Shown in pieces: positions 9,524 to 32,784 of a DNA stretch of 64,000 bases. Position numbers and translations under genes: made by a program. Origin of the DNA: a virus; the IMG/VR virus record IMGVR_UViG_3300037606_000123, positions 32,001-96,000 of that record; one strand, 5' to 3'. The stretch's first letter is position 1. Each line of letters starts with the position of its first letter. Under the pieces are notes generated by a model. That model saw nothing but the letters and a program-made list of their open reading frames with translations, was not told the origin of the DNA and ran no database searches.

Positions 9524-9600
9524 GCTTTATTAATATTTTTTTATTATAATTTATATATTTTATAAATGTCTTTACCTATTTTTAATTAGATAATAAAAAA

Positions 9601-9681
9601 AAACCACAGAGTAGCGAATTCTGTGGTTTCTATAGCCGAAACTATACCCGGTCCTAATCGTGAGACATACGCCTCGGGTTC
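9601..9681 (+). ncRNA. Structured intergenic element resembling 23S rRNA H69/H70 in permuted order; its first hairpin also forms a minus-strand terminator
   Basis: GTAGCGAA loop at 9611-9618 in a 10-bp stem; GCCGAAACTATACCCGGTCCTAA at 9635-9657. Confidence 0.55.
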
Positions 9682-9695
9682 TTAAAATAATATAA

Positions 9696-10514
9696 TTATA
9701 TTATTTTTATATCTATTTTATTTGTAATAAAAGGATTTAATTTATTTGTTGTAACTAAATTCAAATATAATTCAGGTTTATAAATACTAACATATTCTTC
9801 AATTTTTTGTTTTAACCATGGTATAGTATTGATTAAATATTTTTGTAACCATATATTTATATTTTTACATTCTTCAATATTTGCATCTTCATCATCATAA
9901 AAATTAGAAACTTTATATTTATCTAATATTATTGGTTCAAATTTACTATCTTCTATTTTATATCCGATAATATTTTGTAATATACAATTCATTTTTTTTT
10001 CACTTGTTGTGCCTACAGAATTGATTACCGTAGGATCATTAACAAAAATAAAATCGGTTAATTTAATATTATGTTTATCAAGATTATCTTTCAATTTATT
10101 TAATATTTTTTTGTGTGCTTTTTTATTACCTCTTGCAGTTAAAATATTAATAATATCTTTTGTTCCGGATAAATGTATAATATTATTAATATAAACAAAT
10201 AAATTTTCTGTTTGTTTATCAATTAAATCGTTATCATTATATTCTCTTAATGATAATCCAATATCAATCATTTCAATACTTTTAATTCTTTGTATTTTTA
10301 CAAACAATTCATTTGGTAACCATCCACTAAAACCGTTATATGTAAAATAATGATTATCATTTTTGTAATTACCACTTAATATTAAATATCCATCATTAGG
10401 TTTAATACGTAATATTGGTTTACTTGGATTTTTTTTATCAACAATCCACCATTTACTATTTGTATTCCATAATGTATAATCAGCATCAAACCAATGTATT
10501 ATTTCATTTTTCAT
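9696..10514 (-). CDS. HAD-superfamily phosphatase-like protein
   Basis: N-terminal WFDADYTLW, ILTARG, FYDDED motifs. Confidence 0.65.
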   Translation of the reverse strand: MKNEIIHWFDADYTLWNTNSKWWIVDKKNPSKPILRIKPNDGYLILSGNYKNDNHYFTYNGFSGWLPNELFVKIQRIKSIEMIDIGLSLREYNDNDLIDKQTENLFVYINNIIHLSGTKDIINILTARGNKKAHKKILNKLKDNLDKHNIKLTDFIFVNDPTVINSVGTTSEKKMNCILQNIIGYKIEDSKFEPIILDKYKVSNFYDDEDANIEECKNINIWLQKYLINTIPWLKQKIEEYVSIYKPELYLNLVTTNKLNPFITNKIDIKII

Positions 10515-12958: not shown

Positions 12959-13145
12959 AATGCAAATATAATAATAATAAATTAAAAAATAGCAAAATTT
13001 GGTAATATTCTTGTACTACCATATTTCAAAACACATATCTCAAATTTTTGTAGCATGTGTATTACTTTTTATTTATATAGAAATAAAAAACCGACTAAAA
13101 TACGTTTAGCCGGTTTATCTATGAATGTTAAAACATTCGTGCCAC

Positions 13146-13540
13146 GGTGGAGGTGGAGGGATTCGAACCCCCGTTTTTATAAGAAAATTCATTATTTTCT
13201 ACATGTTTATTTATCTTATTCACAAGATAACAAAATATTTATTTTTTGTTATAACAAACATTTTATTCAATTTTAAAGTTTGAATAAAAAACAACTTTTT
13301 GTTTACTGATTGGTTAATCCTTTCGGATCGACTTAAGCTGTTGCTAATTCAAAAGCTGTCTCAGTTACTACAGCTGTAGAAGAAACTTCTACTGAACCAC
13401 CTAAGTCAGAAACTAATTTGTTAAAAGAAGTTTCGTTTTTAAAGTTTGCATTTATTTTTTAGTACTTTATTTAAGTGTATTTACAAAAACACTACATGCT
13501 TATATTGATCATACATTACAAATCAAATCCAAACACCCCC
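13146..13540 (-). ncRNA. ssrA: tmRNA; tag ORF 13449-13333 encodes ANFKNETSFNKLVSDLGGSVEVSSTAVVTETAFELATA
   Basis: 5' GGGGGTG pairs with 3' CACCTCC-A with G3.U70; T-arm GGGGG-TTCGAAT-CCCTC; resume context ATAAAT-GCA. Confidence 0.9.
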
Positions 13541-28287: not shown

Positions 28288-29427
28288 ATGGCACAATCAA
28301 AATTAAATAGTACAAACGTTTCACAAGAACAGTATAATGAATTTAAAGAAAAAGCATTAAATCATTCGATTGTTAGACGTGTTATTTCATTCAAGGATTT
28401 AACATTAATAAGCGATAGTATTATCGAGTATAGTGGTGTGCAATTTCAAATGACAGAAAATGCATTTAAATCATTAGTGAAAATATTAGGTTTATCTAAT
28501 GGTGTAATGGAAACAATTACAAAACAATTAGGTGAATCAGTAACAAATAAATTGTTATCAATGATGAAAGTTGCAATGAGTAGCGATACATCAAAAAATA
28601 CAATTTGTATTTTAGTAGATAAAAAAACAAGTAAAATAGTTGGATTTAGTAAATCAGCTCAATCAATTTTATCAAACAACGCATATTTTACATTGTTTGA
28701 ACAAACAATGAATAACCATACAGGAATGCACATTAAAAATATGGGTATTACTGAAAATGGAAATATTGAAATTTCTGTTTTAAATGACAATTGGGAATTT
28801 AATGTTGGGGGATTGAGTGATGAATATTTTAAATCTGGTTTAGTATTTATTAATACACCAGATTCAACAATTATTAATCCATTTAACGAACGTCTAGTTT
28901 GTACTAATGGTATGGTTGTTTCTGATAATGGTTTGTCATTAATCCTTAAAAATGGAGATGCAAATTCTATAAGTGGTTTCTTTGATGCTGTTCGTAATTT
29001 AAGTGGTACAATTAATTTTGAAAAAGAATTTAAAAATCGTATCATTAAAATGATGGACACAAAAGCATCATACGGCGAAGTTCTTAGTGTTAGAAAAAAT
29101 GTTGAATACCACGTTTCAAATATTAGTCACCCTGATGTAAGAGCAAGCGTAGAACAATTTATTCCAACACAATATATTCATCGTTCATTTTTAGATCAAA
29201 AAGTGGATATTTATAAAATTGATAGTAAGAATTATGCGAAAATTAACACGATGTTAACGGTTTGGGATTTAGTAAATAGATTGACAGATTTATCATCACA
29301 TCCTGTTAAATACGGTTTTGAACTACAACACGGAAATAGTTCTATTTTTGAATTACAAAAAGCGGCTGGTAATTTATCATTTAAAAAGCAATACGATTTA
29401 GAATGTGCGGTTAAACAAATTTTCTAA
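28288..29427 (+). CDS. DUF932-like protein
   Basis: RLVCTNGM signature. Confidence 0.6.
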   Translation: MAQSKLNSTNVSQEQYNEFKEKALNHSIVRRVISFKDLTLISDSIIEYSGVQFQMTENAFKSLVKILGLSNGVMETITKQLGESVTNKLLSMMKVAMSSDTSKNTICILVDKKTSKIVGFSKSAQSILSNNAYFTLFEQTMNNHTGMHIKNMGITENGNIEISVLNDNWEFNVGGLSDEYFKSGLVFINTPDSTIINPFNERLVCTNGMVVSDNGLSLILKNGDANSISGFFDAVRNLSGTINFEKEFKNRIIKMMDTKASYGEVLSVRKNVEYHVSNISHPDVRASVEQFIPTQYIHRSFLDQKVDIYKIDSKNYAKINTMLTVWDLVNRLTDLSSHPVKYGFELQHGNSSIFELQKAAGNLSFKKQYDLECAVKQIF

Positions 29428-31876: not shown

Positions 31877-31947
31877 GCAAGATATAGCTTAATGATAAAG
31901 CGCCACACTTCCAATGTGGAGACGGAGTTTGATTCTCATATTTTGCT
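31877..31947 (+). tRNA. trnG: tRNA-Gly(TCC), atypical acceptor/T stems
   Basis: CCACA-CTTCCAA-TGTGG anticodon arm; GCAAGATA/TATTTTGC can form 8 bp; weak T-stem. Confidence 0.75.
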
Positions 31948-31961
31948 CTAAATTATAATAT

Positions 31962-32033
31962 GCACCATTAATTCAATGGTAGAGTAAATGTCTTATATAC
32001 ATTCGGTCATAGGTTCGATTCCTATATGGTGCA
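31962..32033 (+). tRNA. trnI: tRNA-Ile(TAT)
   Basis: GCACCAT/ATGGTGC acceptor, AATGT-CTTATAT-ACATT, ATAGG-TTCGATT-CCTAT. Confidence 0.9.
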
Positions 32034-32049
32034 CAAATAAAAAAATAAC

Positions 32050-32122
32050 GGGTTGATGTTGAAGATGGCTATCATAACGGTTTTGCAAATCGTTGTCCTG
32101 GGTTCAAGTCCCAGTCGATCCA
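32050..32122 (+). tRNA. trnA: tRNA-Ala(TGC)
   Basis: ACGGT-TTTGCAA-ATCGT; G3.U70 in GGGTTGA/TCGATCC. Confidence 0.88.
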
Positions 32123-32170
32123 AAATGTTTTTATTATTTAATATATAATAAAAACAAATATAAATTAAAC

Positions 32171-32563
32171 ATGAATCAAAGATATTTTAAAATAACAGCA
32201 AATGATGTAAATGACGCAAAACAATTAAAAACAATATTACTAACAAAAAAGTTTTATCCAGAAACAACATCAACACCACCATTACCAGCAACAGTAACTG
32301 GAGGGTTTGATTACAGAAAATTGTTTCTTGTTATAGAAATTCAAAATGATGGTATTATTGTATTGACTAGATCAGAATATACTGTTGCACAATTTAATGT
32401 AAATGTAATACCAACATTAGATTGGACAACAAGATATAATTTATCTTTAGCACCAACAATTACATCATTACCAGAATATACAGAATATCGTAATGGTAAA
32501 AATACAACAACTTCAATACATGCGTTTTTAAACTATGATTACACTTTAACAAATAATAAATAA
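32171..32563 (+). CDS. Hypothetical protein (start revised to MNQRYF)
   Basis: The track start overlaps tRNA-Ala; ATG at 32171 has an A-rich context. Confidence 0.65.
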   Translation: MNQRYFKITANDVNDAKQLKTILLTKKFYPETTSTPPLPATVTGGFDYRKLFLVIEIQNDGIIVLTRSEYTVAQFNVNVIPTLDWTTRYNLSLAPTITSLPEYTEYRNGKNTTTSIHAFLNYDYTLTNNK

Positions 32564-32568
32564 TTAAA

Positions 32569-32625
32569 ATGAAAAAAACAAATAAATACCAGCAAAATAA
32601 CTTACAACAATTATATAATTGTTGA
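32569..32625 (+). promoter_or_regulatory. Gln-rich leader peptide MKKTNKYQQNNLQQLYNC (18 aa), putative attenuator
   Basis: CAG CAA..CAA CAA codons; TTGACAGA (32622-32629) is complementary to TCTGTTAA (32658-32665). Confidence 0.82.
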
Positions 32626-32652
32626 CAGAAATTGTATTATTAAAATTTTTAC

Positions 32653-32686
32653 AAAAGTCTGTTAATATTAATTAACAGACTTTTTT
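32653..32686 (+). terminator. Attenuator terminator directly before tRNA-Gln
   Basis: AAAAGTCTGTTAAT-ATTA-ATTAACAGACTTTTTT. Confidence 0.88.
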
Positions 32687-32688
32687 AT

Positions 32689-32760
32689 TGTCCTATAGTG
32701 AAATTGGCATCACACGTCCCTTTGAAGGATGTATTTCAGGTTCGAATCCTGATTGGACAA
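32689..32760 (+). tRNA. trnQ: tRNA-Gln(TTG)
   Basis: TGTCCTA/TTGGACA, CGTCC-CTTTGAA-GGATG, TCAGG-TTCGAAT-CCTGA. Confidence 0.92.
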
Positions 32761-32784
32761 CAACAAAAACACTAAAACACTAAA

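Follow-up and report, generated by a model that had tools for sequence, protein, structure and literature searches.

A family of structured phage RNAs complementary to 23S rRNA around helix 69

The window analysed here, a 64,000-nt stretch of phage DNA, carries on its minus strand (9681–9595) what is predicted to be a single-copy structured RNA of ~87 nt, ending at its own intrinsic terminator. It is a member of a large family, absent from Rfam 15 and present on hundreds of contigs from uncultured aquatic phages, a conclusion that is well supported by sequence comparison. Taken together, the family, the strand on which it is read, and its complementarity to 23S rRNA can be put forward with high confidence. 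That it represents a phage small RNA, embedded in the 3′ end of a transcript and base-pairing with host 23S rRNA at helix 69/70 in the cell, is the favoured reading, with a probability of roughly 0.6.

The window comprises bases 32001–96000 of a 123,031-base IMG/VR virus record with an estimated completeness of 31%, and the one sequencing run listed as containing the stretch is of DNA from a salt-lake metagenome, probably the source sample; no RNA run is listed for it. The element stands out as a GC island (47.5% G+C across 9600–9679, with flanks of 10–29%) within AT-rich DNA of ~20–25% G+C overall, between two minus-strand genes, and begins 15 nt past the stop codon of the upstream one (Table 1). 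A 5′-nucleotidase-like gene and an SLT lysozyme gene are also found just upstream. The virus is a giant phage with a heavy investment in translation-related RNAs, and at 53–903, 13145–13540 and 31877–32761 the window holds at least seven tRNA genes, an odd tRNA-like gene, a tmRNA and a DUF805 RNA.

Table 1. Positions of the RNA element, its parts and the neighbouring features in the window
Feature	Position	Strand	Remarks
Upstream gene, 272-aa ORF with no assigned function	9696–10514	−	Synteny kept in loci L003–L008
Whole RNA element, ~87 nt	9595–9681	−	GC island; covariance model R1
P1 hairpin, GAGGC-GUAU-GUCUC	9662–9675	−	One G·U pair on the minus strand
Motif A, UUAGGACCG	9649–9657	−	Exact complement of 23S C1920–A1928
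P2 region, GGUAUAGUUUCGGCUAUA, stem UAUAG/CUAUA	9631–9648	−	Partial complement of 23S
P3, 10-bp terminator hairpin	9601–9629	−	9-nt loop AUUCGCUAC (9611–9619) is motif B
U-tract, nine U with the stem end	9595–9600	−	Completes the intrinsic terminator
Conserved TATAAAATATATAA box between terminator and baseplate gene, probable promoter	9551–9564	−	Present at all syntenic loci
Downstream gene, T4-type baseplate protein, 336 aa	8513–9523	−	Pfam PF12322, E 5.3e-06; 87 homologues

The target of motif A comprises the 3′ strand of helix 69 and four further bases. Within P2, UAUAGUU complements 23S 1912–1918, the loop of helix 69, and CGGC complements 1907–1910, while in motif B the bases UUCGCUAC complement G1930–A1937. 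Past its two leading bases, the family consensus TTAGGACCGGTAnTAGTTAnGGC agrees with the antisense of 23S 1907–1928, TTAGGACCGTTATAGTTACGGC, at ~20 of 22 positions in a manual comparison, and three members (L014, L367 and L077) are closer to the anti-23S sequence than the consensus is. The two complementary segments are separated, and follow each other in the same 5′-to-3′ order as their 23S targets. The 10-bp stem of P3 runs directly into a U-run (9595–9603) on the minus strand, the hallmark of an intrinsic terminator; a simple terminator scanner with a loop limit of 8 nt missed it, the P3 loop being 9 nt long.

The rRNA likeness had been noticed on the plus strand in an original prediction, which described a permuted mimic of helix 69 and loop 70. 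Its primary observations stand: GCCGAAACTATACCCGGTCCTAA at 9635–9657 aligns with 1907–1928 of the E. coli rrlH 23S in 20 of 23 columns with one gap, GTAGCGAA at 9611–9618 is the loop of a 10-bp hairpin formed by AAACCACAGA and TCTGTGGTTT (9601–9610 with 9620–9629), and the order is permuted, GTAGCGAA being 23S 1930–1937, which in 23S lies one base 3′ of the first segment. The outer ACCC/GGGT helix that it proposed (9676–9679 with 9646–9649) is present in the window but kept in the nearest relatives only; its inner GAG/CTC hairpin also exists, the conserved form in relatives being that of P1. The terminator had been treated as separate from the rRNA likeness, but both are parts of the same RNA, the terminator loop being itself one of the antisense segments.

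Within the window, the evidence for this likeness is weak. When the whole window was compared with 23S by BLAST, the island match had an E value of 6.6, and two equal-scoring matches lay inside ORFs; only 4 of 1000 shuffles of the island itself reached its 23S score. The two equal-scoring matches, short sense matches to 23S 2511–2573 (28987–29009 and 29293–29305), lie inside a 379-aa ORF (28288–29427) and were dismissed as chance, as were further matches to 23S or 16S elsewhere in the window, which fall inside ORFs or at chance level. The likeness is considered non-random because of comparative data, in which the rRNA-like bases are exactly the invariant ones. These data also sustain the proposed connection to helix 69/70, as it is conserved and the permuted two-part layout is common to the whole family.

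The family was reached through the 87 homologues of the baseplate protein, which led to contigs with the same gene order and thence to an intergenic alignment. Across the syntenic loci (baseplate identity 54–75%), UUAGGACCG and AUUCGCUAC each show at most one change against diverging stems and surrounding sequence, and the invariant 9-mers on the gene strand, TTAGGACCG and ATTCGCTAC, are exact reverse complements of the two rRNA-like pieces. An alignment-based scan added 55 further loci; the element is present beside baseplate genes of 54–59% identity and absent near those of 25–37%, and at two loci (L011 and L014) it is preceded by different genes. The exact 23-mer of the window had no match in viral contigs, and single-protein scans for relatives returned none. 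The pattern TTAGGACCG-N(27–57)-(G)AATTCGCTAC gave at least 120 matches in viral contigs and at least 120 in metagenome contigs, whereas in 185,579 species genomes the two-motif pattern was found on 4 MAG contigs only; assembled 23S was absent from these four motif-bearing MAGs. Among the matches listed there are 178 unique cores, mostly on contigs from freshwater or marine records. Most family members were thus collected with patterns fixing motif A, motif B or both, and in the window the covariance model R1 recovers the element at 71.1 bits (E 9.5e-12, 9595–9659, minus strand) with no second confident match.

Searches of known RNAs returned no relative. At gathering thresholds, Rfam 15 had nothing that matched the element, whether in the window or at eight loci of the family, and blastn of the window element and of type-1 and type-2 members (defined below) against cultured phages returned AT-rich flank matches or nothing. 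A permissive Rfam scan did propose RsaA of Staphylococcus, scoring 22.5 bits where the threshold is 50 (E 0.093) and on the wrong (plus) strand, which was rejected as chance; the sub-threshold match spans 9585–9709, and the RsaA consensus also has a hairpin loop that reads GAGUAGCGA. One paper has catalogued 10,006 candidate viral RNAs, including unnamed ones. In the accessible parts of the literature no account of a phage RNA with complementarity to helix 69 was found, and the unnamed candidates of the catalogue could include the motif.

Members of the family fall into two types. Type 1 (117 unique members among the matches listed, including that of the window) consists of P1, UUAGGACCG, P2, and P3 with a loop of the form (GA)AUUCGCUAC(UC), followed by the U-tract. 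Type 2 (57 unique members among the matches listed) has no U-tract, and instead has an extra covarying hairpin and a conserved 3′ tail with AAAGUGAGC, behind which a sigma-70-like promoter for the next gene is often found. The extra hairpin reads GGCGGCUGCUGCC and contains an invariant G·U pair; in a number of type-2 members (L069, L070, L074, L075 and others; alignment A5) motif A is seemingly enclosed by a helix, ACACC/GGUGU, on manual reading.

A search for homologues with covariation had been suggested as a check on the element, and it revealed, besides the size of the family, a covarying P3 stem around invariant rRNA-like bases. In P3, 94% of alignment cells are paired, with 210 double changes, a result reached by 0 of 500 shuffles, and slid controls have 46–62% of cells paired; the P3 loop is invariant while the stem covaries. 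RNAalifold, applied to a 17-member subfamily, returned P1, P2 and P3 and left UUAGGACC and the motif B loop unpaired. In relatives, P1 is a hairpin at the same place with another sequence, capped by GNRA loops (GAAA, GUAA) that occur on this strand only, as do its G·U pairs. P2 is more variable, in that its register differs among subfamilies, many members have no helix 69 stem, and the anti-loop bases are not always in a loop. Partition-function folds gave a probability of being unpaired of 0.94 for the motif B loop and of 0.49 for motif A, compared with 0.40 at other positions, so that motif A has only intermediate accessibility in these thermodynamic folds; the MFE fold of the window’s own member pairs GGAC with GUCU. 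The family therefore has a feature of trans-acting small RNAs, namely conserved segments outside helices that complement a target, the B loop being clearly unpaired and motif A intermediate.

Several features indicate which strand is transcribed. Among the matches listed, a U-tract lies 3′ of P3 on the strand that reads from motif A to motif B in 117 of 174 unique members, and the nearest upstream ORF is on the element’s strand in 93 of 112 type-1 and 42 of 53 type-2 cases (135 of 165 together); 152 of the 174 elements have no overlapping ORF. Counted by a symmetric rule, internal pairs of P3 that would be G·U on this strand outnumber those that would be A·C by 31 to 2. At one P2 position U·G is the commonest pair (11 of 17 sequences), and one pair in the extra type-2 hairpin is G·U in 23 of 23 sequences. 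Comparison of MFE on both strands gives type 1 no minus-strand advantage and favours the opposite strand for type 2, and the strand call accordingly rests on the wobble counts and not on MFE. On balance, the RNA appears to be the window’s minus strand, and hence a complement of rRNA rather than a mimic.

This bears directly on the proposal that a plus-strand RNA or DNA imitates helix 69 and loop 70 as a decoy for factors or toxins. The plus strand does resemble 23S 1907–1928 and 1930–1937, and the MFE values are no lower for the minus strand, or are lower on the opposite strand in type 2. An rRNA mimic would have the sense and the fold of rRNA; here the transcribed strand is the complement, as the U-tracts, the strand of the upstream gene and the wobble pairs, including the invariant G·U pairs, all indicate, and the helix-69-like stem is not conserved, P2 being re-registered and the stem lost in many members. 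As the complement of rRNA, the RNA cannot be a substrate or binding-site decoy for rRNA factors, which disposes of RluD, RlmH, RRF, release factors and rRNA-cleaving RNases as its clients. The permuted order also breaks the contiguous sites of such factors and of I-CeuI, which had been mentioned in the same connection; that enzyme needs contiguous 23S ~1911–1936, and the two halves are here 30 nt apart in reversed order. A plus-strand mimic is thus very improbable.

Complementarity to 23S extends beyond the bases used to collect the family. The 18 nt 3′ of motif A, fixed by no search pattern, have a mean local score of 6.75 against anti-23S 1903–1919, compared with 3.4 for the reversed target, 4.3 for the sense, 3.7 for the complemented-only sequence and 4.0 for shuffles, and a score of at least 8 is found in 26 of 117 type-1 sequences but in 0.5% of shuffles. 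For the window RNA, motif A plus P2 has its best duplex at 23S 1907–1928, with −30.9 kcal/mol, when the whole of 16S and 23S of E. coli is considered; the next-best site reaches −24.9 kcal/mol, and 0 of 100 shuffles reach −30.9. The best 23S site for motif B is the adjacent one (−14.3), with equally good sites on 16S.

Substitutions within the motifs are informative in the same respect, and were read in scans anchored on one motif only, with one motif fixed and the other read. Motif A is exact in 67 of 95 B-anchored elements. Its internal variants are UUAGGGCCG (A6>G opposite U1923; 14 elements in at least four sub-lineages, judged by eye), UUAGGAUCG (C7>U opposite G1922; 4 elements) and UUAGGACUG (C8>U opposite G1921; L011) only, and every one of them keeps a wobble pair with 23S; other single changes lie at the ends. 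In A-anchored elements, position 1 of motif B, which faces a mismatch at A1938, varies (G in 19 elements), UCGCUAC is conserved as the core, and C9>U variants retain a U·G1930 pair. This pattern, which amounts to about six independent events as judged by eye, is as expected from selection for pairing with an RNA reading CGGUCCUAA-G-GUAGCGA.

The substitution pattern is also central to weighing the possibility that the element is a protein-binding or structural terminator module, its rRNA complementarity being a relic of ancestry such as an old reverse capture of rDNA; a phage or host protein would then recognise the conserved loops, or these would lend stability to the 3′ end of the mRNA. A true terminator does occur in the 117 of 174 listed members with a U-tract, and motif A is only partly accessible, both of which would suit such a module. 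It would nonetheless have to account for why the rRNA-complementary bases are the invariant ones, why internal changes all preserve wobble pairing and why the sole loop position unable to pair with 23S is the one that varies; moreover, simple capture of rDNA cannot yield the permuted order. The element is also single-copy, occurring once in the 123-kb record and likewise once in each of five phage records of 234–391 kb (three of them at least 97% complete), unlike a generic terminator or repeat. A terminator module of this kind is unlikely. The several copies per genome typical of a dispersed repeat were not found, although three contigs (L155, L131 and L011) hold two. In L155 (6671–7570) and L131 (1559–2092) these are type-1 copies less than 1 kb apart, and one L155 copy follows the gene for the ribonucleotide reductase large subunit.

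What the wobble pattern reports is the partner’s sequence, ...CGGUCCUAA-G-GUAGCGA..., and not its identity, so that another RNA with the sequence of 23S 1907–1937 could in principle serve, for example a transcript of the host or of the phage, or a defence RNA that mimics rRNA or derives from it. The phage’s own 123 kb has no bipartite target besides the element itself, with single 8-mers at control frequency, and the occurrence of the family in very different phages fits a universal partner. Of 76 hits to the target 23-mer, spread over 46 of the 81 genomes sampled from one phylum, 75 are exact, and in this sample its copy numbers look like those of rrn operons. A partner other than 23S is decidedly improbable.

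The genomic setting suggests how the RNA may be produced. Between the terminator and the baseplate gene, the invariant alignment columns AATATAT-A (intergenic alignment A1, syntenic loci) map to 9559–9551, within the TATAAAATATATAA box. The box resembles TATAAATA, the T4 late promoter consensus, and by this likeness it is probably the baseplate gene’s own T4-late-type promoter. No conserved promoter of the element’s own was found upstream of it in the window’s clade; TAnnTTTG is present upstream in the window and L006 only, at about background frequency. The RNA is therefore probably the 3′ end of an upstream transcript, most likely that of the 272-aa gene, processed or not.

A GC-rich structured region that leads directly into a terminator and has a gene downstream could alternatively be a riboswitch or attenuator, in which an aptamer fused to the terminator controls the downstream baseplate gene. 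Such elements have a consistent class of downstream gene on the same strand, and mutually exclusive pairings. Here, the downstream genes are unrelated, and in 37 of 109 type-1 cases the nearest 3′ ORF runs on the other strand. The P3 stems vary freely beside fixed upstream motifs, and thus no conserved antiterminator pairing is possible, whereas the terminator loop, which expression platforms do not need, is invariant. With a late-promoter-like box between the terminator and the baseplate gene, and 57 listed members without a terminator, control of this type has very little likelihood. Nor was a conserved neighbouring protein partner found in the family; neighbours include ribonucleotide reductase, a HAD_SAK_2 protein and many unknowns.

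An unusual arrangement is seen in L011 (523–1445), where a full copy (566–629) follows an unrelated gene and a second copy (1376–1438), which has lost UUAGG, lies just before the baseplate gene. Between them is a reverse 247-aa ORF with a weak match to SegE GIY-YIG (E 0.0094, below the Pfam cut-off). The locus has the appearance of a cassette insertion, by which a new copy arrived and the old one was left to decay. It could also be read as a sign that the element acts at the DNA level, as a homing endonuclease target or landing pad, or as a recombination or packaging site, since the two copies flank the possible endonuclease and the second is incomplete. The helices, however, covary with strand-specific wobble pairs, no endonuclease was found near the element in the window or in most loci, and a new copy taking the place of an old one would also account for L011. 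A role as a DNA site is barely plausible.

The reading preferred here, that of an RNA pairing with 23S, can be set against what is known of the target. Helix 69 is a central inter-subunit bridge that contacts tRNAs, release factors and the recycling factor; it projects from the interface of the free 50S subunit and forms bridge B2a. Motif A with P2 would act as the antisense of 23S 1907–1928 and motif B as that of 1930–1937. As the arms follow the same 5′-to-3′ order as their targets, they would form two short helices, flanking G1929, rather than one long duplex. P2, a mirror hairpin of helix 69, would invite a loop–loop start. In the mature 50S subunit, 1920–1924 are paired in the helix 69 stem and 1930–1937 may be structured, so that binding may need unfolding or nascent rRNA; the RNA would pair in trans with host 23S on free 50S subunits or while it is nascent. 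As a possible outcome, steps that depend on helix 69, such as subunit joining, termination, recycling or 50S assembly, would be altered, or the site would be masked. The RNA could in this way be an RNA-only ribosome modulator, for instance an anti-association or assembly-blocking factor, or a shield against rRNA-cleaving defence toxins. The fuller proposal, that many aquatic phage lineages have a dedicated RNA that uses two short helices to grip helix 69/70 of the host 50S subunit, or of a precursor of it, is tentative.

Known systems offer parallels to different parts of this arrangement. Bacterial small RNAs derived from 3′ UTRs, of the CpxQ and SroC type, share the intrinsic terminator of their mRNA. 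The phage element resembles them as a short, single-copy RNA at a gene end, with conserved seeds outside covarying stems and a Rho-independent 3′ end. It differs in that its apparent partner is the universally conserved core of 23S in place of an mRNA, the loop of the terminator holds one of the seeds, and the seeds are permuted relative to a plain antisense. In the plasmid antisense RNAs CopA/CopT and RNA I/RNA II, pairing starts by loop–loop kissing; likewise, the loop region of P2 is complementary to the loop of helix 69, itself a hairpin, and motif A, a flanking single strand, could extend the duplex, but the phage element is encoded in trans, would target rRNA, and varies in P2 register by subfamily.

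The permuted topology has a counterpart in group II introns, where EBS2 and EBS1 pair with IBS2 and IBS1, as there too two separate segments pair with adjacent targets in the same 5′-to-3′ order. The element is only ~87 nt, however, with no intron or ribozyme domain and no intron match in Rfam. Short conserved stretches complementary to rRNA are also known from the calicivirus TURBS motif, which pairs with 18S rRNA, and from snoRNA guides, where they hold a ribosomal subunit or precursor. The phage element differs in its bacterial setting and large-subunit target, and direct reading of the 87-nt sequence of the window member found no box C (RUGAUGA), box D (CUGA), or H and ACA boxes; unlike TURBS, it is placed after a stop codon and before a terminator, which is no context for reinitiation. 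A synthetic antisense PNA against helix 69 shares the target and reportedly shows that the helix can, in principle, be reached by a complementary oligomer, although that oligomer is artificial, and the phage element is a natural, structured and bipartite RNA. In kind, the element is best described as a putative base-pairing small RNA that, together with its terminator, is part of a 3′ end; its apparent novelty lies in the rRNA core as target, the seed in the terminator loop, and the permuted bipartite layout.

We know of no class of virus–host interaction of this kind in bacteria, and, if the proposal is true, it would be the first bacterial case in which a virus targets rRNA directly by means of an RNA. 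An RNA of ~87 nt together with purified 50S subunits would also offer a simple handle on the accessibility and vulnerability of the helix 69 site. For phage genome annotation, a large and previously unannotated RNA family is added, and whether or not its target proves to be another, this is a new structured RNA, well supported and with hundreds of members.
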